Notes: a model not told the origin generated them from the sequence alone. 64,000 nucleotides of DNA from an uncultured virus (IMG/VR IMGVR_UViG_3300035698_023946) (IMGVR_UViG_3300035698_023946); one strand, 5' to 3'; shown: positions 41,661-64,000, counted from the stretch's first letter. A program made the numbers and translations.

Positions 41661-42378
41661 TCAGTCTCTCTAACTGTTTTTCAAAAATAGAGATCATATC
41701 AAAACTCTTGTTGCCATAAGCTTCAGAAAGCTTTTTAATCAAATCGGCCTTATACTCTCTTAAGACTTTTAAATCATTATTCACAAATTTACTCATATGC
41801 TTATTTACTTCAATCTGGATTTTCGACAATTCCTCAACAATTTCCTTGTCATAATCTTTCTTGCTCTTACTCGCAGGTACGGTTGGAGCAATTCCGGTAA
41901 GAGAAAGAATTTTCAACGGACCTAAAAGAGGAGAAACCCAATCTCCCTGTATTTCTGCATCCAAATCAGACGGATCTGACGTTTCTTCAATAATTCTAGT
42001 TAATACAAACAGTAGAATATCATTAAAACTGCCAAAACACTCAATACACCCCTTCCTGCTTTGAGACAAAAAATCAGCGAAATTGATACCACAACTATTG
42101 CACGTTCTTAACTGTTCTTCTTTCGGTATATCCGACATGATATTAACAATCGAATGAACCACATCTTCCTTACTTTCTTCACTAGAGCCTGATTCTTTCA
42201 TCTTTTTAATTTCTAACCCACCTTTGGCTATTTTTTTTGCTATATCATCGATGTTTGGATTTACTTTAAAATTTATAGTAGTTAATACATACTCCATTTC
42301 ATACGCATCCAAAAGAAGTCGAAAAACTTCACCACATGCAGAAATTGTCAATTTATATTTGGGATTATAGTTTTTCAT
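41632..42378 (-). CDS. McsA-like protein (CxxC pair plus UVR-like tail)
   Basis: TCNSCGINFADFLSQSRKGCIECFGSF matches the McsA CxxCG..F....R.GCxxC..F pattern; C-terminal coiled helical pair. Confidence 0.6.
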   Translation of the reverse strand: MKNYNPKYKLTISACGEVFRLLLDAYEMEYVLTTINFKVNPNIDDIAKKIAKGGLEIKKMKESGSSEESKEDVVHSIVNIMSDIPKEEQLRTCNSCGINFADFLSQSRKGCIECFGSFNDILLFVLTRIIEETSDPSDLDAEIQGDWVSPLLGPLKILSLTGIAPTVPASKSKKDYDKEIVEELSKIQIEVNKHMSKFVNNDLKVLREYKADLIKKLSEAYGNKSFDMISIFEKQLERLNDRIKNAKK

Positions 42379-45300
42379 GTTTACTCAAAGAGTTGATTAT
42401 GTTGTCCGCCAGCTTTTCACCCAAGACGGTTTTACACCTCTCTACATTTGATAATATATCTCTTTTGTTTCTGATTCCATTCTTGTAGAGGTTCTGAGCT
42501 CGTTTTTTACCAATCCCTTCGATGGTCACTAATGGACAAAGCTGATATGGAACCCCATTCATTATACGATGAAAGAGAGCATTCCATTCAGAGGGATGAT
42601 ATTGGTATCCTTTTTTACAGGCAAGTTTTCCATGACGCAGGTGAATTATTTTCAAAGTTTCTATCGTTCTTTCTAAATCGAACTTCAATTGAGAGATAGT
42701 GCTCCTGAATGCTGAATCTATCTCATCCCCATTCATTAGAGCGAAGTAACAAGCACCAATTTTAGAAACACCATCCGGAGATCTTCTGGCATATTTCAAA
42801 TATTTCTCCATATTAGAAGTTTCCCTTTCGGCCTTACTTGCAAAAGGTCTCCTAATCTTATACTCATAGCAATTAGCTAAAGCTGTCGCAACTTTTTCGT
42901 TTGTCTTCAGTATAGAAACTCTGTCAGCTTGAGTTGTTGTGGTCCTCTTAGAATTAATGTCATTGATATTAGAAAAGTTCTTATACCAATAGTAAACATC
43001 ATATGGGTTCTGATACATGAAAGAAGGGATTTGACCAAGTGCCGTTATCTTATAAGTGTCCCTACCTCCTACTTCTTCTTTAGAAATCATCTTAAGCATT
43101 TCTAGCTTATTAAAAACCTCATCACAATAATTCTTAGTAAGGCAAACTCCCTGGATATGTGCCAGAGTATGCTTGTACCAATTGTAAAAGTCATCTTTAG
43201 TTTGAATGTTTTCTATCATTACTTCCGAGACCACATTAAACACTAAGTTAGGAACGTCACAAATGTTAGATTTAACAACAAACCCTTTTCTAATGCGTTC
43301 TATCTCAGATGCCACCTGAGAAGACGGAAGCATTATGTAAACATCACCCTTCTGATCGTATGCAGGTCTACCTGATCGTCCAGACATTTGATCGATATCA
43401 CAAACCTCCATGGGAGTCAATCCAAAAGTAGTATGTGCGATGATGACTCTTCGGGCCGGAAGATTACAATTGTGAGATATTAATCCGTTTCCAACATATG
43501 AATGGTTTTTATCTACCTCTATTTCAACAAACTCTCCAGAGCCTACTTCCTCTATAGACTTAATCCTTCTCCATAAAAAATCCCCATTAACTAGAGACTT
43601 CAAATCTTCAGAACAATTTGGCATATTTTCGATAATTTTTAACAGTTTTCCCCTGGTAATTTCTGATTTATTTTCTATATTCCAGAGATCAACCTTAAAA
43701 GACGTAGCCGATGCTCCAAAATTTTTCAGTTCTCTTCGAAGCAAATGTCTAACTGGAACCAAATCGTTGCAATTGTATTCTTGATATTGTTTAGACTCGC
43801 ATAGTCTCCTCAACATATCCTGCTTTCTTGAAAGACAAAATCCAATTCTGTTTAAAAAATTATTAGCGTTCTTTCCATATATCCTAAGTCTCCAAATTAA
43901 TTCCCTACGGGCAGGTTGATAACGACCATTAATTATGGTATCCTGTATACGCTTCGACCCCACTTCTGATCTAATTCCAAAGCACAATAGTATTTGCTGC
44001 ACTTTTCTGACAAGAGCTGGGCTTATACTATTCAACTCTACAGACATATTCCCATTTCCATGATCACAAACTCCACCATCTGCATCAAACAAACCTTTAA
44101 GATAACTTCCAATCATATTTTTATTTACAATTACATCATTTGGAATATCCAAAACAGACTTATCTGTTTTTGTCAAAAGACAATCTAAAAATTCATCAGT
44201 TATTTTTCTGCACTTAGTCACTATATGATAAACCCCATTTTGGTCTGGTCTTGGAAAAGGAACATCATATGAAAAATAATCACAAAGAATTTTATGGACA
44301 ATCTTAAGATTGTCAAGATCCTCTATTCCAGAACAAATGTCTAACGAATATTTCGGAGCACCATCGGCATAGTTCCCGTTCCTAACCAAGCAGCCATCCC
44401 CTACGGCATATCCTAACGCATATCCGAATGAATCGAATTTAAAACCATCCCACATCTTATATGTAGATGGAACGGCAACATAATCATCGCTAGATAAATT
44501 TTCAACACGGTTCCATCCGGGAGATTCTCTTCCAGCCGCACTATAAAACAAATGTTCTGGACTAACATCGCAGACTTCTCCAGAACACATTGTCACACGA
44601 TAGAACTTATCAATCTTCCTAGATTCAACTCTTCTAATAGCGTCATCAGAAAACTCTCTTCCATTAAATGACTTTACGAGATCTCCACATTTCAAATCTT
44701 CAACGTTCTTCATGGCTCCATTAGACATCTGTACAAATGAACCTTTCTTATAGCACCCCCATGCTAAAGTTGAAGTAGATATTAAATATTTTATTTCATT
44801 ATTTTTGAATTTAGATTCAAGTTCTGACCTTTGCCTCAAACTTAGATCGGCATTATGAAAACCAGATTCAATACCAAATGCTTTCAAGTACTCTTTAAAC
44901 TTATAACCCCATGATTTTGTTCCAGAAAAAATAATATGTTGATCTTTTGGGTTCTTCAACATTTGTTCTTTACAAGCGACCATACGATATCTATCAATTT
45001 GGCTGTAATGGCTCTTGATGGATAAAACTCCATCACTAAATTCGACGAAATGTCGATCTAATAAACAGGGTCTATATTCAGATTCCACAATAACAGTTTT
45101 TCTTTTTGAACAAATTGTTTCCAACCACTCAAGCAAGTCAACCTTATTAGGTGCAGTAGCACTCATGAAGATGACCCTACAATCGGGGTTATGTTTACAA
45201 AACCTCATCAATGCGCTTTCTAGTTTTGGTCCACGGTTTTCCGATCCAATCAAATGGACTTCATCTACAACTAAGATTTTAACACGATCTAACCATTTGT

Positions 45301-45766
45301 TAGAACTGTAGTTCCGAGTTTTACTATCAAGCATTTCGGAAGTCGCAACGATGATGTCCGAAGTATTCAACTGTTCCTTTTTTTCATCCGTCATATAATG
45401 GTCGCCAGTTATAGGCAAGATATCTTTCGACCCAAAAGTGTGCGTCTCATCGGTCCATTCATTCAACTTTTCTTCTGTTAATGATTTCAAGGGGAACAGA
45501 CATAATGCGGCACTGCCAGGATAATCCTTCAAAGATTGTGCGACAAACATCTCCATAGCGACAGTTTTTCCAGAAGCTGTCGGAGAAGTGATGATCACAT
45601 TGCAATCTTCTTCTAATATTTCGACGACAGACGACTGCATCGGATTGAGGTGCTCGAAAGGATAGTGTATGATATCCTTGACGGTATCAGTTCTTACCAA
45701 TAATTGCCTAGGGTTATGCTCTCCTAAAGGCTGAGCTTCTTCTCTTATGATTTTTCTTTTATTCAT
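42365..45766 (-). CDS. Ski2/Hel308-like SF2 helicase with intein
   Basis: PTASGKT, DEVH, MSAT, YRPC, TLAWG|CNLPA, QMSGRSGR, C-terminal HhH GIGKKRA. Confidence 0.92.
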   Translation of the reverse strand: MNKRKIIREEAQPLGEHNPRQLLVRTDTVKDIIHYPFEHLNPMQSSVVEILEEDCNVIITSPTASGKTVAMEMFVAQSLKDYPGSAALCLFPLKSLTEEKLNEWTDETHTFGSKDILPITGDHYMTDEKKEQLNTSDIIVATSEMLDSKTRNYSSNKWLDRVKILVVDEVHLIGSENRGPKLESALMRFCKHNPDCRVIFMSATAPNKVDLLEWLETICSKRKTVIVESEYRPCLLDRHFVEFSDGVLSIKSHYSQIDRYRMVACKEQMLKNPKDQHIIFSGTKSWGYKFKEYLKAFGIESGFHNADLSLRQRSELESKFKNNEIKYLISTSTLAWGCYKKGSFVQMSNGAMKNVEDLKCGDLVKSFNGREFSDDAIRRVESRKIDKFYRVTMCSGEVCDVSPEHLFYSAAGRESPGWNRVENLSSDDYVAVPSTYKMWDGFKFDSFGYALGYAVGDGCLVRNGNYADGAPKYSLDICSGIEDLDNLKIVHKILCDYFSYDVPFPRPDQNGVYHIVTKCRKITDEFLDCLLTKTDKSVLDIPNDVIVNKNMIGSYLKGLFDADGGVCDHGNGNMSVELNSISPALVRKVQQILLCFGIRSEVGSKRIQDTIINGRYQPARRELIWRLRIYGKNANNFLNRIGFCLSRKQDMLRRLCESKQYQEYNCNDLVPVRHLLRRELKNFGASATSFKVDLWNIENKSEITRGKLLKIIENMPNCSEDLKSLVNGDFLWRRIKSIEEVGSGEFVEIEVDKNHSYVGNGLISHNCNLPARRVIIAHTTFGLTPMEVCDIDQMSGRSGRPAYDQKGDVYIMLPSSQVASEIERIRKGFVVKSNICDVPNLVFNVVSEVMIENIQTKDDFYNWYKHTLAHIQGVCLTKNYCDEVFNKLEMLKMISKEEVGGRDTYKITALGQIPSFMYQNPYDVYYWYKNFSNINDINSKRTTTTQADRVSILKTNEKVATALANCYEYKIRRPFASKAERETSNMEKYLKYARRSPDGVSKIGACYFALMNGDEIDSAFRSTISQLKFDLERTIETLKIIHLRHGKLACKKGYQYHPSEWNALFHRIMNGVPYQLCPLVTIEGIGKKRAQNLYKNGIRNKRDILSNVERCKTVLGEKLADNIINSLSKHEKL
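43469..44755 (-). mobile_element. Intein with LAGLIDADG homing endonuclease (429 aa)
   Basis: LAWG|CYKKGS ... SPEH ... LGYAVGDG ... LKGLFDADG ... ISHN|CNLP. Confidence 0.95.
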
Positions 45767-48849: not shown

Positions 48850-49566
48850 TCAGTCTCCAAAAGAAGCGATAGTCTCTAAAACAGGTCCAACTCCGTGTTG
48901 TTGAATAAATTCTGCGGGATCAGAGTTGGCTGGAAGATTAACTTTGATGACATCAACATCTTGTTTTTTTAAAGATCGCACCGACTTGTCTGCCCCAAGA
49001 TTACCAGCCTCATCAGCATCTAACATGAGGAAAATCTTATAACAACCAAGACCTTTGAGTCTCGAAGCTTGAATCATATTAAAATTAGAACATAATACAG
49101 CCACAGTGTTCCTTAATCCGTTTTGATAACAAGCCCACAAATCAAATTCCCCCTCTACGACAATAACGTATCCTGCTTGGCGAATATGCTTTAACGCATT
49201 TTTTAAGCCATAAAGATAATGCTTCTTTGCAAAGGATTGATGCCACCACAACGGCTTATAATTAGTGACCGGGTGTAATTTAGACTGTAAAACCTCAGAA
49301 TTATACAAAGATACAACATCTCCATTCGAGTCCTTATACGACGGGAACCTTCCAGCAAAGCCCTTTATCTCCCCGTGAATATTCCATAATGGCACAGTCA
49401 AGCGTCCGGACAACTCTGGATGAGCTCTCGGAGGACACCAACCTAAATGAAACTCCTTAACAATATCTAAACTAATATTTCGGTTCCGTATATACTCCAA
49501 ACATTTAGAACCTTCTTCTAAGATCAGTTGTTCTCTAAAATACCTGTTAAGATGAAAGTTGTCCAT
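48850..49566 (-). CDS. dnaG: DnaG-type primase catalytic core (TOPRIM) lacking the zinc-binding domain
   Basis: YIRNRNI, F.LGW, GRL.VP, GFAGR, LYGL, VEGEFD, LDADEAG, DP. Confidence 0.9.
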   Translation of the reverse strand: MDNFHLNRYFREQLILEEGSKCLEYIRNRNISLDIVKEFHLGWCPPRAHPELSGRLTVPLWNIHGEIKGFAGRFPSYKDSNGDVVSLYNSEVLQSKLHPVTNYKPLWWHQSFAKKHYLYGLKNALKHIRQAGYVIVVEGEFDLWACYQNGLRNTVAVLCSNFNMIQASRLKGLGCYKIFLMLDADEAGNLGADKSVRSLKKQDVDVIKVNLPANSDPAEFIQQHGVGPVLETIASFGD

Positions 49567-50963: not shown

Positions 50964-52100
50964 TTAACCCACCGGGACCGGGTTCAATTCATTCATGATG
51001 TCTTCAATGGTGGTCCCTTCTGAGGCGGGGGGAGAAGTGACCGGTTGAATCTGTTGAGAAACTTGTCCTACTGGGGCAGTTCCCGCAACTGGAGCAGCCA
51101 CAGGCTGCGCTTGAGGAACGGGAGGCTGACCAAAGCTCTCTACGGCCTGTGGGGGAGCCACAGGAGTGTTCTGAGCCGTTGGGACGGCAAGAGGAACTGT
51201 TGCGGCCACAGGAACCGCTACTGGTGCTGCAGCGACCGGTTGAGCCGGTTGTGCAGTCACTGGGACAGGAGGCGGAGATGAAACGGTGGCGGACGCTGGT
51301 TGTCCAGCGCCTGCCCGACGATAATCCGGACTTTCGTCATACTGAATTCCATCAACTCTCATACTCAAGGGGCATTTAAAGGGGTGATACTCTACCGCCA
51401 ATTCCCAAAGACCATTAAATTTGTCATTCGGGTCTTGATACTTGAACTTACACGCCGACGCCATTTCTTTTTCGTTCAAAGGAGAAGCTTGTTTAAAATA
51501 GTCTACAGAGTAGTTGACTGCCTCGCCCACAGGAGCCTGTTGAGTGGTAATGATGAAATCTGGCCCTTGAACTAAATCGAACGGAGGAAAAGGATTGATT
51601 TCTCCCTCAAAAGTGAAGAAGTTTTCAAACAACCCGTTATAAGGCCCTGTCAAGATTTTGATTGGTACGGGACCATCGGGATTTTCTGCTTGTTCATCAC
51701 GATCAATGACATTAATCGCATATTTCAACTGCGGTTTCTTTTCAGTTTTCTCAAAGATCGGACAAACTGCTTCAGCTTCGGAATAAGGAGAGCTATCTGC
51801 TTTGAGATAAACTCTTTCAGAGATCTCTTTTACTTGCCCGTTTTCATCTTGACATTCTTTAACCATATCGAGAAGAAGAGTTCTCGGCGAGATTTTATAC
51901 CCCTGACCGGGAATGTAGTGAGCATAATATGGGAAAAAACCGCTAACCAATCGAATGCGATGTTTTCCGATTTCAGAAATTTTCATGTACTTAGAATTGC
52001 GATTGCCTGACCCGGAACCTGCTCCGGAACCACCTCTGTTTTGACCCATTGAGGGTCCTTTGATTGTTGTGCCTAAAAAACCTAATCCAGTTGTAGACAT
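50964..52100 (-). CDS. Putative single-stranded DNA-binding protein with Pro/Ala/Val-rich linker
   Basis: RIRLV, CPI, YAINVIDR, G.DFII pattern of phage gp32-like SSBs; adjacent to recA. Confidence 0.65.
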   Translation of the reverse strand: MSTTGLGFLGTTIKGPSMGQNRGGSGAGSGSGNRNSKYMKISEIGKHRIRLVSGFFPYYAHYIPGQGYKISPRTLLLDMVKECQDENGQVKEISERVYLKADSSPYSEAEAVCPIFEKTEKKPQLKYAINVIDRDEQAENPDGPVPIKILTGPYNGLFENFFTFEGEINPFPPFDLVQGPDFIITTQQAPVGEAVNYSVDYFKQASPLNEKEMASACKFKYQDPNDKFNGLWELAVEYHPFKCPLSMRVDGIQYDESPDYRRAGAGQPASATVSSPPPVPVTAQPAQPVAAAPVAVPVAATVPLAVPTAQNTPVAPPQAVESFGQPPVPQAQPVAAPVAGTAPVGQVSQQIQPVTSPPASEGTTIEDIMNELNPVPVG

Positions 52101-52964: not shown

Positions 52965-54899
52965 TTAAATCGCTTGTTTCTGAGAAAGCTTTCCGCTATT
53001 TTTGTAATGGGAGTTTACCTTTAAAGACTTATGATTCGGAGGTTTAACTTTCTTAGAAAGTTCCCCCGTGAAAACTTTCGGACCTGCTCTTTCTCTCTTC
53101 TTAGTATACGCCCATACATGGTATTTATCTCGGAAAGATTTCATGTTTTCCGATCCTTTAAAGGAAGAAAAATATTTATTCTCAAAGAAGATTTCCATAA
53201 CATCGGACCCTATAGAAATGTTCGAAACCTTTCCTAAGAAATCGTCAAAATCATCAAAAGGTTGTAAATCTGCAATCTGTTTTCCAAAACCTAAACCAAT
53301 ACCCTTTTCAACATGAAATGGCTCTATGATAGTTCTTTCATCAAGAACAGAAAACCCTTCTTTACTCAAATTGATATCTGGAGGTTTTATAGTATACCCG
53401 TTCTTTTTCAGTTCCTTATAATACCTTTCCAGTTTTTGATCCGCATCAGCTAAATAATTCAAAGTGACCGTCATCCAAGAAGCCATGAAATATGGATAAT
53501 AGTAGTTCTTCAAATGAGCGGTCTGCATGGAAAGAACGGCATAAGCCACACTGTGGGACTTGTTAAAAGCATACTTTCCAAATTCAACCATGATATTCCA
53601 AAGTTGATTGGCAAATGAATCATTAATCAAGCCTACAGACGAGCAGCCATTCAACCACATATTTTTCAGCTGCTCAATCTTCTTTTCATCATCTTGCTTT
53701 TTCCCAATGAATTTTCTAATCTTATCTGATTCTGTGGCAGTGAACCCTGCTAAAATTCTTGTCATCTTCATGACCTGTTCTTGGTAAAGAATCAGGCCGA
53801 AAGTTTCTTCTAAAATTCCCTTAAGAGAAGGATGATAATATGTGACTTTTAAAGGATCGTCTTTTCTCTCGCCATACAGAGAATGATAATCCGCAGCCTT
53901 TGGTCCTGGACGAACTAAGGCATTTGCGGCAACAACGTCTCTAAATGATTCTGGCTTAACTGGGCCTAAGACCTCTAACATGTCATACTTTTCAAATTGA
54001 AAAATCCCATTTGTCTTTTTGTCGTAAAATATATTCTTGATGACATCCTTGTCATTTAAATCAATGTTATCTAAGTCTACTTTCTCACCAGTTTTTTCTT
54101 CAATCATATCTAAACATTGATGAAGGTGTTTCAACGTCATCAGCCCCAATATGTCATTCTTAAGAAGACCTATGTTTTCAACATCATCTTTATCGTATTC
54201 TATGATGAACTCATCTTTGACACGACGAATCGGAACGTATTCTTCTAAATCTTTATCAGCAACGATAATCCCTGCAGGATGTTTCCCTCCATATAATTGA
54301 ACTCCATTAATTTGTCTCGCTTGCTCGAACACCTCAGCATACTTCTCGACGTATTCTTTTAAATCAGTTCTGTCAATTGCCTCATCGAATGTTTCCGCTC
54401 TAGGATTTACCTTTTTCGACATGAACTGTGAAAACTGATCGGCATTCATGTCTCCTTCTTTTACATCATTGACCTTAAATGCGAATTGAACTGCCGACTT
54501 AGATTTAATGACTTGATGAGTAGAAATGAATCCAGTATTTTTTTCCCCATACTTTTTAATGATATGCTCGAAAACTGGACCTCTTTCTTCAAAATCGACA
54601 TCGATGTCAGGAGGAGCCTCTCGTGTCAAATTGTACTCTGCTTCAAAAACACTTGATTTAAAAAAGTTTGGTTCCTTATTTGTGATCCCAAGAAGATAAG
54701 CCACCATAGAGTTTGTACGATTTCGAGTTCCTCCAGTTTTTCCACTTCTATAAATCTCCATAAGATCCTTCAATAGATCAGTATTATCGAGAAAGAAGTC
54801 CATCTCTTCCTTAAACCTATCTTTATATTGATAGATCAAATTCTTTCTATCTTCAAGCATATTCTTTATTATGAATGTAATGATCTTAGTATGATCCAT
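52965..54899 (-). CDS. dnaE: DNA polymerase III alpha, C-terminal (catalytic) part
   Basis: PDIDVDF, HPAGI, KNDILGL, GIFQFE, RPGP, YQEQVM, YAFNKSHSVAY, PPDINLS, KGIG. Confidence 0.95.
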   Translation of the reverse strand: MDHTKIITFIIKNMLEDRKNLIYQYKDRFKEEMDFFLDNTDLLKDLMEIYRSGKTGGTRNRTNSMVAYLLGITNKEPNFFKSSVFEAEYNLTREAPPDIDVDFEERGPVFEHIIKKYGEKNTGFISTHQVIKSKSAVQFAFKVNDVKEGDMNADQFSQFMSKKVNPRAETFDEAIDRTDLKEYVEKYAEVFEQARQINGVQLYGGKHPAGIIVADKDLEEYVPIRRVKDEFIIEYDKDDVENIGLLKNDILGLMTLKHLHQCLDMIEEKTGEKVDLDNIDLNDKDVIKNIFYDKKTNGIFQFEKYDMLEVLGPVKPESFRDVVAANALVRPGPKAADYHSLYGERKDDPLKVTYYHPSLKGILEETFGLILYQEQVMKMTRILAGFTATESDKIRKFIGKKQDDEKKIEQLKNMWLNGCSSVGLINDSFANQLWNIMVEFGKYAFNKSHSVAYAVLSMQTAHLKNYYYPYFMASWMTVTLNYLADADQKLERYYKELKKNGYTIKPPDINLSKEGFSVLDERTIIEPFHVEKGIGLGFGKQIADLQPFDDFDDFLGKVSNISIGSDVMEIFFENKYFSSFKGSENMKSFRDKYHVWAYTKKRERAGPKVFTGELSKKVKPPNHKSLKVNSHYKNSGKLSQKQAI

Positions 54900-56233
54900 T
54901 AAAAATAATCCCTTTCTGAAGTGTGATAGATTTCATCTGCCGAAAGAAATCTATCAAAATCTAAATCATGTATGATCGGATCTATTTGCGTAATTCCCAA
55001 CAAAAACAAAATCAAAGAACCTGCGGCAGAACCGCGTCCCGGTCCGACAAGGATATTCTTTTTTCTGGCAGCGTCGATGTAATCTTTCACCATGAGGAAA
55101 TCTATGCAGAATTCAGGATTGCAAGATAAAACTCCCATTTCTCTTTTCAATCTCTTGACATAAATTCTCGAAGTAAGTTTTCTTTTTACTAATTCTTTTG
55201 TTGCAAGAAATCTCACATACTTTACTTCAGAGACTTCTTCAGAAACATTCTTTTTCAAGAATTCCTGAAACTCTTCATCCTTATCTAAATCAAAAAAATC
55301 TACTGATGGTAAGCGGATATCGACCTTATCTCCTAACGAAAGCATCGGAATGTGGACATTGCAACTATGGGCCAACTCATAAGCGTTAATCAAAGACTGT
55401 TTATCTGAGTCCCACTCTTGATACATTCTTTTTGGAGATTTCAAAAAATAATTCAACGTGTCTTGCGGCTTATGGGAGTTTTCTAATGCATTCTCGTTCT
55501 TTCGTCCTCCCAACGAGTGAATATTCATCTTAATGTATCTGGACACATATTGATGAGAATGAACGTAATGAACATCATTTGTGACGATAGTTTTTATCCC
55601 AAGTTTATTCGCAATCTTACGAGTGCCTTCGACAACATTGAACTGTCTTGCAACTAAAGTCTCCGTATCTTTTGATAAGTGCTTTTCATTTCCATCAACA
55701 CCTTGATACATCAATTCTAAATAAAAGTTATCTCCAAAAGCTTCCTTGTATTTAGAAGCAAGATATTCCGCATTACTAAAATTGTCTTCAACGATGGCCT
55801 TTGGAATCTCTCCTAAGATACATGCACTTCCAATTATCACACCTTCCTTATATTTGTCTAATTCTTCAAAATCAATCCTTGGCTTTTTATAAAACCCTTC
55901 ACGATTTGCGACCGTGCTTAAACGCACAAGATTTCGATATCCCTCATTATTTTTGGCAATCAACAATATGTGATGAGTTTTGTTATTCACGTCATCCGTC
56001 TGACGCATATTGTTACAAATATAAGATTCAATGCCAAGGACTGGATGGATATCTTGTTTCTTACAAGCTTCATAAAACTTCAATGCTCCAGAAAGAGTCC
56101 CATGATCGCTCAACCCAACGGCATCATATCCTATCTCCTTAGCATGTTTGACAAGATCTTTGATATTACAAATGCCATCATAGGTTGAAAAATCGCTGTG
56201 GACATGGAGATGTGAGTACTTATAAGGTTCCAA
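54899..56233 (-). CDS. dnaE: DNA polymerase III alpha, N-terminal (PHP) part
   Basis: HLHVHS, SDHG, GIE, KPRID, SACILGE, TNDVHY, GPGRGSAAGS, FDRFL. Confidence 0.95.
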   Translation of the reverse strand: MEPYKYSHLHVHSDFSTYDGICNIKDLVKHAKEIGYDAVGLSDHGTLSGALKFYEACKKQDIHPVLGIESYICNNMRQTDDVNNKTHHILLIAKNNEGYRNLVRLSTVANREGFYKKPRIDFEELDKYKEGVIIGSACILGEIPKAIVEDNFSNAEYLASKYKEAFGDNFYLELMYQGVDGNEKHLSKDTETLVARQFNVVEGTRKIANKLGIKTIVTNDVHYVHSHQYVSRYIKMNIHSLGGRKNENALENSHKPQDTLNYFLKSPKRMYQEWDSDKQSLINAYELAHSCNVHIPMLSLGDKVDIRLPSVDFFDLDKDEEFQEFLKKNVSEEVSEVKYVRFLATKELVKRKLTSRIYVKRLKREMGVLSCNPEFCIDFLMVKDYIDAARKKNILVGPGRGSAAGSLILFLLGITQIDPIIHDLDFDRFLSADEIYHTSERDYF

Positions 56234-56677
56234 TTAAACTCTCCTTTTATGAAACTCTTTTTGTAGCATGGCTACAGGATGCTCTAAAAGATACGCTAAA
56301 GAAATTCCGGTTGGGATGTCAAAATCAAGAATTGTTAAAGAGGACTCTTCCGACTGATCGATTATCGTTATCCTTATCACTGGTTTATCATCTACGTCAT
56401 AAGACAAAAACATACTATTAACAATAAGATTCGACCCCTTCAGTATATTGTAAATGTTTACGATATTGAATTCTTGAAACAATCTATTTTTAAGTAATAC
56501 AATTTCATGTAAGGCATAATGCCCAAAAGAATTAATAGGACAATCTATCCGAATATCTTTCTCTTCTGGATTCACAAAAAAAGAAACCCTTTCTCCATCC
56601 AAATCGGAGATGATACTATATGTCAAACTAGTATATGCCAAATCGGTATTTTTTACATCCATCAGAAAACCTCGCAT
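56234..56677 (-). CDS. Possible bifunctional-nuclease (DUF151)-like protein, degenerate
   Basis: Size and DFDIPTGISLA..LEHPV resemble the DxRPSDAIALA...PI motif. Confidence 0.4.
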   Translation of the reverse strand: MRGFLMDVKNTDLAYTSLTYSIISDLDGERVSFFVNPEEKDIRIDCPINSFGHYALHEIVLLKNRLFQEFNIVNIYNILKGSNLIVNSMFLSYDVDDKPVIRITIIDQSEESSLTILDFDIPTGISLAYLLEHPVAMLQKEFHKRRV

Positions 56678-57180
56678 TCCTTCATTCGTTCAATATCTTC
56701 TTTCGTCACAATATAGTTTCCAACAGGTCTATAACATATCGACAAGGAATCATTATATGGAAAACTCTCTCCATTATTGAAAACATGTCTCACATAGTAT
56801 CTGATGAGAGACGATTTTGCGAATCCAAAAGTAAGTTTGACTTCAGGTCTCACATATCTTATCATAGTCTGATAGGTATCTTTTAAACAAGATGCACTGA
56901 CAAGTTTATTTGCTTTAAAAGTTCCACCCATTCCAAAACCCATCTTGTCATCAAAATCTTTATCAAAAATTCTAACATGAAAAAGAACATCATTTTCTGC
57001 ATCACATTTTATGATTCTATCTTTCAATGTCTCTTTAACATAATCGTAATCAAAACTCTCATCCCAATTTTCACCAAAAAATTTAATCAATCCATCAGAT
57101 ATTTGCCCTATCTGTTTATCCTGATTAATTAAAAACTCGCGTGGAAAATTCAAAAAGTATTTATCAACCAAATTCGACAT
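56662..57180 (-). CDS. Hypothetical protein
   Basis: 172-aa ORF. Confidence 0.7.
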   Translation of the reverse strand: MSNLVDKYFLNFPREFLINQDKQIGQISDGLIKFFGENWDESFDYDYVKETLKDRIIKCDAENDVLFHVRIFDKDFDDKMGFGMGGTFKANKLVSASCLKDTYQTMIRYVRPEVKLTFGFAKSSLIRYYVRHVFNNGESFPYNDSLSICYRPVGNYIVTKEDIERMKECEVF

Positions 57181-57439
57181 GTTTGTAGGATATCTCTTCT
57201 TTCTTCCTGTCGTAATTCACAAACCACATACTCTGTTTATCATTTACAGTTGAATTACATATGGATATATGTACTTCACTCATACTTAAAAACATATTAT
57301 CAAAAAAAAGATTAAGAGTATGTTTCCCGTGATCTGCATAAACTTTATTGCCTCTATATTTATGCACATCTGTTCCATGAATCCAAAAATCATCTTTACC
57401 AGATTTTTCAATCAAAGAATTATGTAGCTTGAGTAACAT
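57164..57439 (-). CDS. Hypothetical protein
   Basis: 91-aa ORF, TAATG-coupled to the upstream gene. Confidence 0.65.
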   Translation of the reverse strand: MLLKLHNSLIEKSGKDDFWIHGTDVHKYRGNKVYADHGKHTLNLFFDNMFLSMSEVHISICNSTVNDKQSMWFVNYDRKKEEISYKHVEFG

Positions 57440-58272
57440 TAATCATTTGTCCTCACTTCACTCTGTCTGTTTGGACCGAAAGATAAACCACACAACCATT
57501 CTGCAATATCTCTCCTATTCCCCGGAACACCAAAACAACTCTCAGCACGATTCCAAACATCTTCTAAAGGAAAAAGATTAAAGTGATTCATTCTAGATGT
57601 TTTTGAAATATCTTGACCTTGACTATCTAAAATTCTAGGATGTAAAAAGATATCATATTCAGGAAAACTTAAAACATCTCTCCAAAAAGAATATAGTTCA
57701 AAAGGATTAGTATGGTTATCTAATAAAAAACTATACGGATGATAAAGACTATCATCAACAACTTGACAATTTGTTTTTAAAACATATGAAACTACCTCAT
57801 GCATGAAATATGGATTCCACAACATTTCATCAACAGGAAGATTTCCTTTTTTATCAGAAGTGTTCATTTTATAAAAACATCTCAATACATCAAATAAAGG
57901 AACGCCATTCACAGATTTATGAAAATGTTTTTCTGGGATACAATAAAGTATTCCCTTGCTAATAATAGTTTCGTTTTCTAACTCTAAAAACTTTTCATGA
58001 GCTACTTTAGAATAAATGTTATCACTAAATTTTCCACAATTCTTAAAGTAAGGGAACAATTCTTCAATAGTTTTGACAATTCTTTCAGTTATTTTATTCA
58101 TCGAAGATGGATTAAAAAACCCATCATACAGATTCCAGTAATTCACCTGAATATCATCAATCACGAATCCGACATCTTCACCATCTTTGTCAGCCAAATA
58201 GTCGATCAAACACATTGACGCTAAATGTCCTAGATGAAGATCGCCAGAGGCGGTAGGCATGAATCGATACAT
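57439..58272 (-). CDS. Class I aminoacyl-tRNA synthetase (GluRS/GluQ-like) catalytic-domain-only protein
   Basis: RFMPTASGDLHLGH (HIGH), FVIDD, HPRILDSQGQDISKT (KMSKS-like). Confidence 0.75.
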   Translation of the reverse strand: MYRFMPTASGDLHLGHLASMCLIDYLADKDGEDVGFVIDDIQVNYWNLYDGFFNPSSMNKITERIVKTIEELFPYFKNCGKFSDNIYSKVAHEKFLELENETIISKGILYCIPEKHFHKSVNGVPLFDVLRCFYKMNTSDKKGNLPVDEMLWNPYFMHEVVSYVLKTNCQVVDDSLYHPYSFLLDNHTNPFELYSFWRDVLSFPEYDIFLHPRILDSQGQDISKTSRMNHFNLFPLEDVWNRAESCFGVPGNRRDIAEWLCGLSFGPNRQSEVRTND

Positions 58273-58281
58273 ATCGGTCCC

Positions 58282-59307
58282 TTATCTCAAATTGTCTAAA
58301 CTCCAATGCTCGTCTGTTATTGAATCGGTGAAACCAACATCCTTATAACACTCTTTAGAATAAATTTTATTGATTTGACGAACACCTTCTATATCTCCAT
58401 CTCGAATCAAATCGATCACCATCCTTACAACATCCATTCTTTCTTTCTTGACATCTTTATATCCGATCCTAGTCAATCTGTCAGTTTTTTCAAAGGTACT
58501 TTCATTAACAAACATTGAAACAAAATCATAATTGTTCAAGTATGCCGTCGTTGCAGTTGTTGGAAATCCAAAAACACCCATGGCCCCCCACCCGATCTTA
58601 CATGAAAATTGTCGCTTCATAGAATTCTGTTCAAGAATGACTGATGGTAAATATTTACAATCATGTATTCCTTGTGTCGGACAATATAAATGTAAATCAA
58701 TTCCAGATTTTTCAGCATACGAACATATCTCCACATTGTCCAATTCATGCTTATATTTAGCGTTTGCTCCAAATCCGGGGCACATCATTGTCGCCAGCTG
58801 TTTGTCAAACCCATGTTTTAAAGCCAAATCCATTAAGCACTTATGAAACCCCATCCAAGCATCATGATTTTCAAGAAATTTTCCTTCCAATACCTCTTGA
58901 GTATTTCTGATAGGAAATGTACTTTCTTCAGACGTTGCCAATTTAATCATGTAGACATCTATGTCAAAATCTTTCATAGAGATCATGACATTTTCAGACC
59001 TTGACACAAGCAAACTCATTTCTGTTTGATTTATCATATGATTGCTATCATGCCATAAAACAGATTTAAAACTACCATCTTCCATCCTGTTCAACTTAGA
59101 AACGCATGTAGGAAAGGCGATTATTCCAAAACCTCGTTCCTTTATGGGATCATGAACGAATTCCATCAACTCACAAGCAACAATGATGTCATCAAAACCA
59201 CTCTCTTTCATTCGATCAAGATATCGATACAATTCATCATAATCGATGACTCCATCGACCATGTGTTTATACCATATATCTAAATTAGTAGTGACGAACT
59301 TCATCAA
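58282..59307 (-). CDS. Hypothetical protein (alpha/beta, possibly TIM-barrel enzyme)
   Basis: 341-aa ORF with ATGA overlap to pyrG; LDRMKESGFDDIIV. Confidence 0.7.
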   Translation of the reverse strand: MMKFVTTNLDIWYKHMVDGVIDYDELYRYLDRMKESGFDDIIVACELMEFVHDPIKERGFGIIAFPTCVSKLNRMEDGSFKSVLWHDSNHMINQTEMSLLVSRSENVMISMKDFDIDVYMIKLATSEESTFPIRNTQEVLEGKFLENHDAWMGFHKCLMDLALKHGFDKQLATMMCPGFGANAKYKHELDNVEICSYAEKSGIDLHLYCPTQGIHDCKYLPSVILEQNSMKRQFSCKIGWGAMGVFGFPTTATTAYLNNYDFVSMFVNESTFEKTDRLTRIGYKDVKKERMDVVRMVIDLIRDGDIEGVRQINKIYSKECYKDVGFTDSITDEHWSLDNLR

Positions 59308-60968
59308 ACTTCATTCCTACTTATACGATTAAGGAAAGCCATGAAAAGAGGATGAGGATAAAGGAATTTACTCTTATACTCAGGATGATATTGAGTTCCG
59401 ATGAACCATGGGTCATCGGAAGTTTTCGCACTATCTAATTCCATGGCCTCTACTAATCCATCTTCATTCACAGCAACGACCTTTAACCGGTACTCTGCTA
59501 ACTGTGGAACAAATTCATTATTAATCTCATATCTATGACGATGCCTCTCGCTAATATATGGTTGTTTATTCTCATCGACAAGGACTTTGTTGATTCCTGT
59601 GCCATACTTCATATATGCTTTTAAAAAGTCAGAAGAACTATCGATAAGATTAGCTCGATACGCTCCGAGCCTCATCGTTCCACTTCTTTCGGTAACTTCC
59701 TTTTGACATTCCATTAAGTGAACTAAAGGTGTTCCTGGTCGTTCTTCTAGAAACTCTTCATATGTCGCATCTTTAATTCCGACAATTTCTCTTGCAAATG
59801 CGACCACAGAAGTTTGCAAACCCAAACACAAACCTAAACATGGCAAGGAATGATAATAAGCGTACAGGAAAGAGTCCTCTTTATCTTCCACTCCTCTAAA
59901 TCCAAACCCTCCAGGGATGATTATGCCGTCACAATCAATATCCCTAGACTCTCCGTAATACTTAATTTCGGCATCAATTCCTATAGAAATCGCTGACTGG
60001 TAAATGGCTTCAGCGATGCTCTTATATGAATCCGTGACGTCTGTATATTTCCCAAAAATTCCAATTCGTTTGGACGAACCGGTCTTAACATCTATTCTGC
60101 TGACTTTGTCAAGCCACTCTGTGTTTCTTTTGTCAAAATCGACATCCATCCTAAAATGCCTAAAGATAGATTTAGAAAGATCGTTCCAATGATGTACTGG
60201 AATTCTATATACAGGACTAGTATCGTCCATATAAATGATATCTCGTCTGTTTACATTGCAAAACATAGAAAGCTTTTCGGCCATTCCTTCAAGTTTACTG
60301 CTTATAACTCCTTTTTCGATTCTACAAAGAAGCAGGTCTAAAGAAACTCCCAACGCTCTCAATTCTTCACAAGACTTTTGAACTGGTTTTGTTTTAAATT
60401 CATCAGCTGATTGCATTTTATGAATAACCGCAAGATGGCAAAAACAAACTCGCCTTTCATCTCGATCAAAAGATGATCCGATCTGCCTAATCGCTTCAAT
60501 GATAGGCATGCTTTCCATATCTCCAACAGTACCGCCGATTTCAACAATTACGAAATCCACATCATCATCATGACCTTCTAAAATCCTTTTCTTGATTTCA
60601 TTAGTTACATGAGGAATTACAGTGACACAATCACCATCATACTCTCCCTTCTTTTCTTTCGTGATGACTTCTTCATAAACAGACCCCATCGTTGCGATAA
60701 CATTTTTATCTATCTTTGCATTGGTGAATCTGGAATAATGCCCTAAATCTAAATCAGTCTCTGCTCCATCGTCAGTCACATAAACTTCGCCATGCTGACT
60801 TGGATTCATTGTTCCGGCATTAGAGTTGATGTAACCATCGACCTTACGAAAAGAAATCTTAAATCCAAACGACTCTAAAAGAGTTCCTATCGTCGCACTT
60901 GTAATGCCTTTTCCAAGACTCGAATTCACCCCACCGGTCACAAAAATATATCTCGGTTGTTTTTCCAT
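59304..60968 (-). CDS. pyrG: CTP synthase
   Basis: TGGVNSSLGKG, GTMNP.QHGE, ETDLDLG, EIGGTVGD, PGGFG, GLCLGLQ, ERHRHRYE, QYHPE. Confidence 0.97.
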   Translation of the reverse strand: MEKQPRYIFVTGGVNSSLGKGITSATIGTLLESFGFKISFRKVDGYINSNAGTMNPSQHGEVYVTDDGAETDLDLGHYSRFTNAKIDKNVIATMGSVYEEVITKEKKGEYDGDCVTVIPHVTNEIKKRILEGHDDDVDFVIVEIGGTVGDMESMPIIEAIRQIGSSFDRDERRVCFCHLAVIHKMQSADEFKTKPVQKSCEELRALGVSLDLLLCRIEKGVISSKLEGMAEKLSMFCNVNRRDIIYMDDTSPVYRIPVHHWNDLSKSIFRHFRMDVDFDKRNTEWLDKVSRIDVKTGSSKRIGIFGKYTDVTDSYKSIAEAIYQSAISIGIDAEIKYYGESRDIDCDGIIIPGGFGFRGVEDKEDSFLYAYYHSLPCLGLCLGLQTSVVAFAREIVGIKDATYEEFLEERPGTPLVHLMECQKEVTERSGTMRLGAYRANLIDSSSDFLKAYMKYGTGINKVLVDENKQPYISERHRHRYEINNEFVPQLAEYRLKVVAVNEDGLVEAMELDSAKTSDDPWFIGTQYHPEYKSKFLYPHPLFMAFLNRISRNEV

Positions 60969-60969
60969 T

Positions 60970-61803
60970 TCAATCTGCTCCTTCGTTTTCCCAACGAATT
61001 ATATCTGATAAACTTTTCCCAGCTGGGTTTTCAAGATGAACTCCAGTATGTGCATAATATAAACAAAGAACGGCGGCGAGATCGAAAAAACCACATAAGT
61101 AAATTCCATCTTCTTCAATTTCTTGCTTATGCAAATAAAAGTTATGATAATCTCTATCCAAAATAACTATTGATGACAAATATTCAATCATCTTCACATC
61201 AAGATCTTCCTCTGAATCAGCAAAGAACATTTTTACGACACATGGGTTCCACGCTCTAGAATTCGGAACAATGACCATGTATGAAACATACGAATCCTTT
61301 TTTAAGGCACCATAGTTACCAGTCATATCGATTTGGGAAGTAGACCTGATACCGAAATGCTTTACCAAATAATTTCCATTGAATCGGCCAAAAATGGCGT
61401 CCGAATAATCGAAAAAGCCTTTATCAACTAATTTGTATTTGACATTTCTTTCGAGCGGAGAAGTCGAATGAATTATCGAGATTTCCTCCTCTTCCTCTTC
61501 TTCTTCATCTTCTGCAAAAAAGTCAAAATCAGGGTCTGCCGCAACGTAGTCAATTTCATCAATACCCATGACAAGATCATGTTCTTCGGATAAATGTTTT
61601 ACCCGTGGGCCAATGAAAAACGTTTTATCTTTCAATGTATTAATATTGACCCCCCATATACCAGTACTTTTGTAAAGCAAAAGGTCTAAGTCATCGCACA
61701 TATGTATGATGTCTTTTTCTTGAACGTCAGCCACCTTCTCAAAAAATGGAACTGCGCTTCTTAGTAATTCTGGTTGGGAGGGAATGAGCTTGTAATGGTG
61801 CAT
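60970..61803 (-). CDS. Hypothetical protein with poly-Glu tract
   Basis: 277-aa ORF. Confidence 0.7.
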   Translation of the reverse strand: MHHYKLIPSQPELLRSAVPFFEKVADVQEKDIIHMCDDLDLLLYKSTGIWGVNINTLKDKTFFIGPRVKHLSEEHDLVMGIDEIDYVAADPDFDFFAEDEEEEEEEEISIIHSTSPLERNVKYKLVDKGFFDYSDAIFGRFNGNYLVKHFGIRSTSQIDMTGNYGALKKDSYVSYMVIVPNSRAWNPCVVKMFFADSEEDLDVKMIEYLSSIVILDRDYHNFYLHKQEIEEDGIYLCGFFDLAAVLCLYYAHTGVHLENPAGKSLSDIIRWENEGAD

Positions 61804-62419
61804 TTTTTTTCAACTCCATACTTTTTTTATCAGATACCACATCTATTAACTTTATAGAATCCGGATCATAATCTTCTTCATCATACATCTTATCAATAGT
61901 TTTATAATGACTCAGTATAAAATCTAATGTTTCTTCAGAAGCGTCTATTTCGATCATCTCTCTAAACCGTGTCATAATTGTGGACACTTTACAATCGAAT
62001 TTCTTTATCTCTTCTTTCATCTCAGAAAGAGTAATTCCCTTAGAATCGAATAGTTGCAAAAACTTTTCCAACTCCCTTATCATTAATCCATCATCTTCTT
62101 CTTTAGACCAGCCTAAACTGATTCCATAATTTTCCTCAATATATTCTAAAACCTCTTGCCAAGAACTTATTCCATTAACTTGCTTAATCAGCTCAATTTG
62201 ATCCCCTCCCTTCTTACAGCCAAAACAATGCCACAAGTTCTCTTCAAAATCAATCGAACAAGAAGGAGTGTTCTCTCTATGAATAGGACATAAAACCATT
62301 TCCGTTGACGATCTTTTGGAATATTCTATTCCAAAATCTTTCAAAACATCTTCAATAGAAATTATGTTTTTAATCTTTTGTGCAAGTTCTTTTGAAACTT
62401 TAAAATCTTTAGTATCCAT
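61739..62419 (-). CDS. CHC2 zinc-finger protein (primase zinc-binding domain without TOPRIM)
   Basis: LCPIHRENTPSC ... WHCFGC..GGD.I. Confidence 0.88.
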   Translation of the reverse strand: MDTKDFKVSKELAQKIKNIISIEDVLKDFGIEYSKRSSTEMVLCPIHRENTPSCSIDFEENLWHCFGCKKGGDQIELIKQVNGISSWQEVLEYIEENYGISLGWSKEEDDGLMIRELEKFLQLFDSKGITLSEMKEEIKKFDCKVSTIMTRFREMIEIDASEETLDFILSHYKTIDKMYDEEDYDPDSIKLIDVVSDKKSMELKKNAPLQAHSLPTRITKKRSSIF

Positions 62420-62446
62420 TTTCGTGTCTGTTTTATTTTAGTCCGT

Positions 62447-64000
62447 TCAGGTAGAATCGTCAAGAAGGTCGTCTACTGACCGTAGGCCCTGGAGTTCTCT
62501 CATATCCGACAACAAGACCTCGTCATCATCTGGCTCACTTTTCTTAACGGAAACTCCAGTAGTCAGCTCTTCCTCGTCTTCTTTTGACAAAAAAGCCTCC
62601 AACCCGTACTTGTCAGTCACCTCTTCAACTTCAGAAGAGATTTCACTTCCGGTGAGCGTCAACGATTCTGAAGTGGTTCCCTCAATCACAAATTCAGGAT
62701 CTCTAAAAGCACAAATATCCCTTTCGAATCTTAAGGGGATATGAATATCGGCAACACCGTTTCTGTTCTTAACTATTTTCAAATTGCATTGACACTTATC
62801 CTGATTGCTCATCTCAATTCCAAACATCGAATCAGAATCTTGAAATATTTGATCTGATTGACTGATGTCTTCACCAAAAATCTCAGTAACTCTAACTCCC
62901 TTTTTTTCTTTCACGGCTGTAGATTTAACTTGAGAAGCGGCAACGATGGGGATATGCCACTTCTTTGCTACGGCTCTCAAATCTTTTGTCACTGTTCCAA
63001 ATTCCATATCTATTCTAGCACCATATCTTTCACCCGGCTTGATGAGAGAAATTTGATCGACAAAAACAATATCAGGGACCCAGGTTTGAAAATGATTCTC
63101 AACAATCATCTCTATATTTGAAACAGAAAATTTTCTAGCTCCTAACTGGAGAATGGCATATCTTCCACCATCTGGCTGATTTTCACAATTCTTTTTCATC
63201 TCCTTCTTATATGCAATCAGTCTATCAGATTCTTCATCCGTCACCTGTCCCCTAATGATAGAAGTCAATGGAATCCCTGTTTCCGAACTACTTATCTTAT
63301 GAGACCACATCAACATGTCATCTTCACAAGAAACAATGAGCACTTTTTTACCATGAAGACATTGCAACCAAGACATGCACTTCATAAGCGTACTCTTACC
63401 CGTTGCAGGCCGACCTGCGACAACATTTAACGTCCCTTTCTCGAAACCATTGAACCAATGATCGACAGAAGGATAGTAAGTAGGTATCCCTGCATATTTT
63501 TCAGGATTTTCTTTACGTAATCGTATGTCTTCTAACTGAGGTTCTATTTCATTAATGAAATCTAATACTTGCCATTCTCTCTCCTCTATATTGTGCTGTA
63601 GTGAAAGAAGTTTTTTGGTAAGATTTTTTACAGTTTCTCCAAAAGACTCTGTACCCTTCTTTCTTTCTTCCATAAATTCAACAACTAACTCGCCGGTTTT
63701 TTTAGAAAGTGCATCATCTTTGAATTTATTGAAATAGTAATCAAAAGATTCATCATCTGGACAAGAATCGTAAATACTATTGAAAAATGTTTCGTATTCA
63801 TGATAAGTCTCAGGATCGATTTTAGAAGAATTTCTAACATCTTCCATGTATACAGATTTTGTCAGTAAATTAGTAGTATTGTAATAATAATGAACGGCCA
63901 TTTCAAAAAGATCACGAACACCTTCATTGATAAACCATTCCGGCTGTATATTCCCACTAACAGCCGTCTCAATCAATTCCTTACTTCGGAATAGATACGA
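62447..64000 (-). CDS. dnaB: Replicative DnaB-like helicase (start probably beyond the right edge)
   Basis: GIPT, AGRPATGKS, FVDQI, ASQ, QDSD, KNRNG; frame stays open to 64000. Confidence 0.92.
   Translation of the reverse strand, partial: SYLFRSKELIETAVSGNIQPEWFINEGVRDLFEMAVHYYYNTTNLLTKSVYMEDVRNSSKIDPETYHEYETFFNSIYDSCPDDESFDYYFNKFKDDALSKKTGELVVEFMEERKKGTESFGETVKNLTKKLLSLQHNIEEREWQVLDFINEIEPQLEDIRLRKENPEKYAGIPTYYPSVDHWFNGFEKGTLNVVAGRPATGKSTLMKCMSWLQCLHGKKVLIVSCEDDMLMWSHKISSSETGIPLTSIIRGQVTDEESDRLIAYKKEMKKNCENQPDGGRYAILQLGARKFSVSNIEMIVENHFQTWVPDIVFVDQISLIKPGERYGARIDMEFGTVTKDLRAVAKKWHIPIVAASQVKSTAVKEKKGVRVTEIFGEDISQSDQIFQDSDSMFGIEMSNQDKCQCNLKIVKNRNGVADIHIPLRFERDICAFRDPEFVIEGTTSESLTLTGSEISSEVEEVTDKYGLEAFLSKEDEEELTTGVSVKKSEPDDDEVLLSDMRELQGLRSVDDLLDDST

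Follow-up and report, generated by a model that had tools for sequence, protein, structure and literature searches.

What does a virus do with an aminoacyl-tRNA synthetase (aaRS) reduced to its catalytic core? The question is raised by a stretch of 64,000 nucleotides (nt) from an uncultured virus (IMGVR_UViG_3300035698_023946), the whole of which is called the window in this text, where a 277-amino-acid (aa) protein of this kind is encoded near pyrG and among replication genes. The initial annotation of this DNA regarded the protein, pyrG and four further open reading frames (ORFs) as an undescribed ligase pathway, in which the position beside CTP synthase pointed to modification of nucleotides, DNA bases or tRNA, possibly as counter-defence. 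The analysis described here points to a smaller unit, namely a cassette formed by the 277-aa ligase, a 341-aa barrel-like protein and a 172-aa protein. The reading favored here, to which we assign a probability of about 40%, is that this cassette forms an aminoacyl-AMP and passes the amino acid to an acceptor other than the 3′ end of a tRNA, most likely a sugar-like one.

The fold of the 277-aa protein is the best established part of the argument. The AlphaFold2 (AF2) model, built on the alignment of the relatives found with phmmer, has a mean predicted local distance difference test score (pLDDT) of 86.7 and a predicted template modeling score (pTM) of 0.86. With this model, Foldseek placed GluRS 6b1p first (E 2.6e-8) and returned 159 matches at E <= 0.001; those listed are mostly GluRS, GlnRS or GluQRS, together with some MetRS, which marks the fold as a Rossmann-type catalytic core like that of GluRS and GlnRS. 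The VIA structure comparison gave the same Z score of 16.3 for GluRS 2cfo, GluRS 6b1p and GluQRS 4a91, with root-mean-square deviations (rmsd) of 3.1-3.3 over 217-224 residues. Residues 1-277 of the ligase cover the whole chain of Escherichia coli GluQRS 4a91 (residues 7-291), and the same residues align to positions 4-313 of the 487-residue chain 2cfo_B. No anticodon-binding domain is present in the ligase, and Pfam gave no Anticodon_2 match. Sequence models respond only faintly: PF00749 matches residues 3-30 (E 0.049, 13 bits vs a cut-off of 23.4), and the GluQRS model NF004315, the sole NCBIfam match, covers residues 3-42 (E 6.4e-4, 19.2 bits vs a cut-off of 250). A profile of the ligase family, searched against PDB sequences, found GluRS 6b1p in two stretches at E 4.8e-5. 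It is therefore the fold match (AF2, Foldseek, VIA), and not Pfam, that confirms the aaRS-like identity. On the predicted structure, the protein can be solidly assigned to the class I synthetase catalytic cores of the GluRS/GluQRS type, devoid of an anticodon-binding domain; in this respect the truncated, core-only enzyme proposed by the initial annotation is borne out, with the ATP-binding signatures intact.

The family around this protein is small. A phmmer search over 1.84 billion representatives yielded nine proteins at E <= 0.001: seven full-length relatives (264-294 aa, 34-49% identical), one fragment, and P0009, a more canonical mini GluRS of 225 aa (E 9.3e-4). PF00749 is matched by five of the nine aligned ligase-family members at E <= 0.1, the best at E 3.1e-20. 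Structure and feature searches of the Atlas led to tRNA-synt_1c clusters, including three that are 100% viral (232-254 aa); these viral clusters are the nearest neighbors of the ligase in feature space, with scores of 0.87-0.88, which have the value of a lead only. A tblastn search of the phage collection with the ligase found nothing. Judged by these sequence comparisons, the ligase family appears to be a very divergent offshoot of the core-only aaRS paralogs with conserved partners of its own.

Such divergence could also be read as decay. An extreme distance from known synthetases (13 bits to PF00749) and a family of nine proteins among 1.84 billion representatives are features that a catalytically dead remnant, kept for a structural or regulatory role, might well have. 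The active-site motifs argue for the opposite. In an alignment of eight ligase-family members with three canonical proteins (P0009, the 285-aa mini GluRS of LR745206.1, and the GluQRS of a bacterial-looking contig, L001), the residues R3, H13, G15, D40, D173 and K224 are invariant in all 11 sequences, and H13, G15 and H16 are invariant in 9/9 sequences of the ligase-family alignment. The HIGH and KMSKS motifs noticed earlier are thus present as H13-L-G-H16 and I-S-K224-T, and the family also retains the RF.P arginine near the N-terminus and the aspartate pair (D39/D40) of the I-D-D motif. Invariance of H13, G15, H16, K224 and the Arg/Asp pocket among members that are only 34-49% identical is what active enzymes typically show, and a dead remnant seems highly improbable.

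The amino-acid pocket is, nonetheless, not that of GluRS. None of the eight ligase-family members has the (V/I)RG arginine that all three canonical sequences (3/3) share, and the family residues in this column are L, L, K, A, A, L, H and L; the profile alignment to Helicobacter pylori GluRS agrees on its absence. An invariant aspartate of the ligase family stands two positions after this column. The Cys-rich zinc knuckle of GluQRS (CFC...C in L001) faces a gap in 8/8 members, and the ligase-family alignment contains no invariant cysteine. The initial annotation had seen a change at this point as well, by setting TNCQVVDDS in the place of THVIRGED, but the two segments were misaligned: in the H. 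pylori profile alignment QVVD stands opposite IVDD, so that TNCQVVDDS corresponds to the GluRS IVDD segment, and it is YSFLLDNH that stands opposite VIRGDDH. By analogy with GluRS and GlnRS structures, R3 and the aspartate of the IED/DDT motif would bind the amino acid, including its alpha-amino group, and the (V/I)RG arginine presumably fixes the side-chain carboxylate of glutamate. Because this arginine is lost and the Arg/Asp pair is kept, the ligase probably still adenylates an alpha-amino acid, although one other than glutamate. Net charge was also considered as a test of RNA binding and was dropped: the isoelectric points (pI) of the ligase family lie at 5.2-6.9, and the bacterial GluQRS from L001 (5.9) is just as acidic.

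A second line of evidence comes from the genes that accompany the ligase. In a related locus, the 3.5-kb metagenome contig L003, three genes with overlapping junctions follow one another as they do in the window. The first encodes a 355-aa homolog of the 341-aa barrel protein (163-1230; 29% identity, E 3e-48) and the second the ligase relative P0003 (39% identity). The third, for a 192-aa homolog of the 172-aa protein (2039-2617; 28% identity, E 3e-19), directly follows the ligase with a stop/start overlap. When the five L003 proteins were compared with the window by tblastn, only the three cassette genes matched. In L003 the cassette is preceded by a gene whose terminal 54-residue fragment has no match in the window, pyrG included, and the contig carries no pyrG upstream of the cassette, no 91-aa ORF, no 277-aa acidic ORF and no replication genes. 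In this sense, the linkage of the ligase to genes of no assigned family in a related genome is confirmed, while the 91-aa and 277-aa acidic ORFs, counted by the initial annotation as members of the cluster, are not conserved with it. Downstream, at 2617-3498 (+), a glycosyltransferase family 9 (GT9), heptosyltransferase-like gene begins at the stop codon of the 192-aa gene and is cut by the contig end (Pfam Glyco_transf_9 E 1.6e-4, 21.5 bits vs a cut-off of 22; heptosyltransferase I E 3.9e-8). A second linked case is hinted at by P0002 (ligase, 49%) and P0013 (barrel, 56%), for which the longest contig is 10,912 nt in both instances. Scans of IMG/VR and of GTDB genomes showed no related locus, and scans of metagenomes showed L003 only. 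A word-index search retrieved a single relative for each of the three cassette proteins and missed the barrel homolog of L003, which makes it insensitive at such distances. Taken together, the sequences suggest that the 341-aa barrel-like protein, the ligase and the 172-aa protein form a conserved three-gene phage cassette (1/1 related loci examined).

This linkage bears on another explanation, that the ligase is a minimal, anticodon-blind synthetase which aminoacylates a phage or host tRNA at its 3′ end. Its HIGH motif and KMSKS lysine are intact and the catalytic core is complete, and aaRS genes are not foreign to large phages, up to 15 of them being mentioned for huge phages in one survey (Al-Shayeb et al., 2020; PMC7162821). 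However, the amino-acid pocket is unlike that of GluRS, none of the curated family thresholds is reached, the 64-kb window contains no tRNA genes, and a conserved coupling to two non-translation genes would be unexpected of a plain synthetase. We therefore regard this explanation as decidedly improbable.

Little can be learned about the partners from family libraries, and the label of unknown given to them by the initial annotation stands: nothing in any library explains them. For the 341-aa protein, no match was found in Pfam, PHROGs, NCBIfam, PADLOC or PDB sequences, Pfam at E <= 10 gave noise, and tblastn against the phage collection gave nothing; its homologs P0010-P0013 are 55-56% identical to it. 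The AF2 model, which rests on a two-sequence alignment, has a pLDDT of 49.6, with residues 209-298 under 50, and shows alternating strands and helices. With this weak model, the best Foldseek match is D-psicose 3-epimerase 2hk0 (E 6.6e-5), followed by aldolases and glycoside hydrolases, and the matches listed are almost all carbohydrate-acting or sugar-handling (beta/alpha)8-barrel enzymes; VIA Z scores are flat at 10.1-11.8 and no entry stands out. The modeled topology suggests that the partner is probably a (beta/alpha)8 TIM-barrel enzyme, with no family assignment. The 172-aa protein likewise has no match in Pfam, PHROGs, NCBIfam, PADLOC or PDB sequences, nothing but noise in Pfam at E <= 10, and no tblastn match in the phage collection. 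A resemblance to the GNAT fold, suggested by a ‘YYV..GF’-like stretch near its C-terminus, found no support in any search and was dropped.

The position of pyrG deserves a separate comment, since it was a clue to function in the initial annotation. The gene is what it was said to be: CTP_synth_N (7.9e-97) and GATase (7.8e-26) are both matched, and the product scores 540.4 bits with TIGR00337 (equivalog cut-off 462.75) and 570.3 bits with NF003792 (cut-off 308), as a standard CTP synthase would. Genes for purine and pyrimidine synthesis occur in many huge phages, according to the same survey (PMC7162821). In the window, too, pyrG is accompanied by scattered genes for nucleotide supply, namely purA-like and IMPDH/GMP-reductase-like genes, thyX, and genes for a class II ribonucleotide reductase and a deoxynucleoside monophosphate kinase. 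On these sequence assignments, pyrG probably is an independent nucleotide-supply gene outside the cassette, and its adjacency most likely is incidental. Such adjacency is weak evidence in any case, because every gene in this genome abuts its neighbor.

According to the route proposed by the initial annotation, pyrG and the neighboring ORFs would make or install an aminoacylated pyrimidine or a hypermodified DNA base as counter-defence. The location of the cassette within a replication block and the stop/start overlap between pyrG and the barrel gene (TGATG) fit this idea. True phage-borne pyrG genes are also rare in the phage collection, where pyrG matched 16 records, most of them with host-like or fragmentary labels. 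GT-B glycosyltransferases, as in L003, are known to decorate phage DNA as well. Several observations stand against it. As a member of the pathway, pyrG is not upheld, being absent upstream of the cassette in L003 and scoring as an ordinary equivalog. The replication-module position has little weight either, since the whole window is equally packed and co-directional and the L003 cassette adjoins a GT9-like gene instead. The 64 kb showed no gene for a hydroxymethylase, a DNA transglycosylase or a base kinase, thyX encodes a normal flavin thymidylate synthase, and PADLOC gave no match. The adenylosuccinate-synthetase-like gene at 16295-17758 (-) carries the PHROGs family label ‘2-aminooxy adenylosuccinate synthetase’ (PurZ-type); in NCBIfam it scores 335.8 bits with PurA (cut-off 402) and just 38.7 with PurZ. 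There is thus no sign of a 2-aminoadenine genome, because the gene scores as PurA. All in all, the route through pyrG to a DNA base appears distinctly unlikely.

A more serious contender is RNA modification of the GluQRS kind. In this case the ligase would aminoacylate a modified base or ribose of a host or phage tRNA (or of another RNA), the barrel protein would prepare the base or work in the manner of a transglycosylase, and RNA would be handled by the 172-aa protein. No structural match is better than that to GluQRS 4a91, which ranks level with GluRS and is covered from end to end (Z 16.3, rmsd 3.1, 219 residues), and the only model of NCBIfam to recognize the ligase is that of GluQRS (E 6.4e-4). 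TGT, the enzyme that inserts queuosine, is a TIM barrel. The window also encodes two proteins with PolyA_pol-head or tRNA-nucleotidyltransferase-like domains (924-2162 and 3294-4031, both on the minus strand), which flank a DUF192-containing ORF. Against all this, the family lacks both the glutamate-binding arginine and the zinc knuckle of GluQRS, and its score of 19 bits is far from the NCBIfam cut-off of 250. No queuosine or 7-deazaguanine genes, tRNA genes or Rfam match were found in the window, no transglycosylase is among the listed matches of the weak barrel model, and it is a glycosyltransferase that adjoins the cassette in L003. Modification of tRNA is accordingly unlikely, although it deserves to be kept in mind.

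The favored reading, transfer of an amino acid to a sugar-like acceptor, may then be described in the following steps. The ligase would activate a non-glutamate alpha-amino acid as aminoacyl-AMP, and the aminoacyl group would then be moved to a non-canonical acceptor that offers a hydroxyl or an amine, with the same transfer logic as in GluQRS (tRNA nucleoside) or MshC (amino sugar). The acceptor could be sugar-like or nucleotide-sugar-like, and it might be built or processed by the barrel enzyme, while the 172-aa protein may be an accessory or acceptor-handling subunit. A sugar-like acceptor is favored because of the barrel partner and the glycosyltransferase neighbor in L003. Of the ligase pathway first proposed, this retains a core-only aaRS paralog linked to genes of no assigned family and leaves out pyrG and the 91-aa and 277-aa acidic ORFs.

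Several points weigh against this proposal. The whole of it derives from sequences and models. The roles of the pocket residues (R3, D39/D40 and the missing arginine) are transferred from GluRS and GlnRS structures. The linkage consists of one examined locus (1/1, L003) and the 10,912-nt coincidence, and the GT9 match lies just below the Pfam cut-off and in one contig only. The barrel model is poor (pLDDT 49.6) and its Z scores are flat, so that neither family nor chemistry can be read from it; moreover, TIM barrels mostly resemble sugar enzymes anyway. No sugar or glycan genes are present in the 64-kb window. Finally, the ligase fold spans the whole of GluQRS and is thus fully compatible with an RNA acceptor, and charge does not discriminate.

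A bolder version sees in the cassette an undescribed aminoacylation system. The ligase with its rebuilt pocket would charge a sugar or a base with an amino acid other than glutamate, this sugar or base would become part of phage DNA or of a host tRNA, and the barrel enzyme, together with a glycosyltransferase in some phages, would build the acceptor. This version is rather unlikely, but, if true, phages would possess a nucleic-acid hypermodification of a new chemical class, serving to evade host restriction or to retune translation. Whatever the acceptor, the cassette offers a compact three-gene target to those in search of metabolites, glycans or nucleosides that are newly aminoacylated when phages infect. 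The practical consequence of the corrected reading is that the cassette becomes the focus for experiments, and pyrG and the replication genes are neighbors, not demonstrated partners.

The surroundings of the cassette are listed in Table 1. The window has about 36% G+C and consists of one minus-strand, co-directional string of tightly packed genes. The minus strand carries all six ORFs of the initial annotation, with order and positions as given there, and the cluster is indeed embedded between dnaB and dnaE, with DnaB_C and a primase Zn ribbon upstream and PHP and DNA_pol3_alpha downstream. The tight packing that it described was found as well: besides the stop/start overlap after pyrG, the ligase and 91-aa genes share TAATG, the 341-aa and ligase genes are separated by 9 nt, and the overlaps are 17 nt (91-aa/172-aa) and 16 nt (172-aa/147-aa). 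A scan for promoters and terminators gave counts within about 1.7 standard deviations of shuffled controls and sets no operon boundary. The 277-aa acidic ORF overlaps the primase Zn-ribbon ORF by its first 65 nt, and its real start may be further in; it has no match in Pfam, PHROGs, NCBIfam, PADLOC, the Atlas or, by tblastn, the phage collection. No significant family match (Pfam, PHROGs, NCBIfam, PADLOC) and no homolog was found for the 91-aa ORF, and the 147-aa ORF had no significant match in these four libraries or, by tblastn, in the phage collection. PDB sequences likewise gave no match for the 91-aa, 147-aa and 277-aa acidic ORFs.

Table 1. Genes of the cassette, its neighbors and the replication flanks, with positions counted from the first nucleotide of the window
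Feature	Coordinates	Strand	Basis
DnaB-like helicase, upstream flank	62447-63976	-	DnaB_C 1.3e-27
Primase CHC2 Zn-ribbon protein, upstream flank	61739-62419	-	Zn_ribbon_DnaG 6.3e-19
277-aa acidic ORF with poly-Glu run	60970-61803	-	ORF call, without family match
pyrG, glutamine-hydrolysing CTP synthase, 554 aa	59304-60968	-	CTP_synth_N, GATase, TIGR00337
341-aa barrel-like conserved partner	58282-59307	-	Homologs, weak model
277-aa GluRS/GluQRS-like class I ligase, catalytic core only	57439-58272	-	Fold, motifs
91-aa ORF between ligase and 172-aa gene	57164-57439	-	ORF call
172-aa third cassette member	56662-57180	-	L003 homolog
147-aa ORF between cassette and DnaE	56234-56677	-	ORF call
DnaE-type polymerase ORF 1 (444 aa), PHP and start of palm	54899-56233	-	PHP 3.1e-49, DNA_pol3_alpha
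DnaE-type polymerase ORF 2 (644 aa), palm, fingers and HhH	52965-54899	-	DNA_pol3_alpha, DNA_pol3_finger 3.4e-46

The replication flanks have some features of their own. The upstream flank (61739-63976, DnaB/primase) matches phrog_19 at 2.2e-56 and the two-ORF DnaE (52965-56233) corresponds to phrog_405. The first DnaE ORF covers positions 15-97 of the DNA_pol3_alpha model and the second covers 68-260, and about 30 model positions, including the ‘...LLGIT’ stretch, occur in both halves; the gene could be truly split, or it could have been duplicated at an old insertion site or frameshifted. The primase is split too, the CHC2 Zn-ribbon part (61739-62419, -) lying by DnaB and the Toprim/DnaG core (48850-49566, -) about 12 kb away. 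A 378-aa protein at 50964-52100 (-), which adjoins a UvsX/RecA-like gene, has a long tail rich in Pro, Ala, Val and Gln and coincides with a local G+C peak of 43.5%; it had no family match in the library scans and is possibly a protein similar to single-stranded-DNA-binding proteins.

Further away, two genes contain inteins: the ClpB-like ATPase at 30494-33625 (-), with Hint and Intein_splicing domains, and the DEAD/ResIII helicase at 42365-45766 (-), whose intein carries a LAGLIDADG homing-endonuclease domain. Host-like genes on the minus strand encode a stand-alone response-regulator receiver domain (4037-4441), GroES/Cpn10 (25284-25625), ClpP (26909-27496) and a sigma-70-family factor (28268-29044), and regulators and chaperones of this kind are typical of very large phages. 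As for habitat, contigs at least 99% identical to parts of 56200-61900 came from all four of the runs compared, which are labelled as salt lake metagenome and belong to four studies; the contigs are short and add no structural variation at the locus, and no RNA run is listed as containing it. The phage thus recurs in the salt-lake habitat at low depth.

How does the ligase compare with known systems? A close likeness is to GluQRS/YadB (4a91, 1nzj), the glutamyl-queuosine tRNA(Asp) synthetase that glutamylates queuosine-34, which is also a core without an anticodon-binding domain, of similar size (Z 16.3 over 219 residues) and with the same HIGH motif, KMSKS lysine, N-terminal arginine and aspartate of IED/IDD. 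The differences are the (V/I)RG arginine (missing in 8/8) and the zinc-knuckle segment, both lacking in the phage family, the score of 19 bits vs 250, and extra segments that the phage family has after IDD and before VVD. In addition, the phage ligase is phage-borne and linked to the barrel and 172-aa genes, whereas bacterial GluQRS is linked to dksA, as one report describes (PMC3542578). With the GluRS/GlnRS catalytic domain (PF00749; 6b1p, 2cfo, 1j09, 1gtr), the motifs RF.P..G.LH.GH, I(E/D)D, VVD and SK align, but the phage protein has neither the anticodon-binding domain nor the pocket arginine and scores below the Pfam gathering threshold. Among its VIA matches is 2rd2, an entry for GlnRS C229R; like GlnRS, the phage ligase would have just the first of the two arginines, if the residues are equivalent.

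The viral mini GluRS proteins (the Atlas clusters of 232-254 aa, P0009, and the 285-aa protein of LR745206.1) are, like the ligase, phage-borne, core-only and of similar size. Unlike it, they keep the canonical motifs (RIDD/RLDD, (V/I)RG.D, LSKR/ISKT) and pass PF00749. When their neighborhoods were examined, one contig, L001, turned out to be bacterial-looking, and the other locus, L002, showed no barrel neighbor; in the whole of its record, the 634-kb uncultured huge phage LR745206.1, no barrel homolog was found. For phage GluRS-like or GluQRS-like enzymes, no paper was found in open-access PMC and bioRxiv.

The remaining likenesses are of function only. MshC, the cysteine:GlcN-Ins ligase and a CysRS paralog, uses the amine of a sugar as acceptor for its activated amino acid, which is the kind of step proposed here for the cassette; it belongs, however, to the CysRS lineage, and the CysRS match to the phage ligase is weaker (3sp1, Z 14.4). 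EpmA/PoxA, a LysRS paralog of class II, is an aaRS core that passes its amino acid to a protein, EF-P. Both are described as aaRS cores with non-tRNA acceptors in two reports (PMC9437257, PMC3950694). Each of the core-only paralogs, GluQRS, MshC and EpmA, has exposed an unexpected aminoacyl-transfer chemistry.

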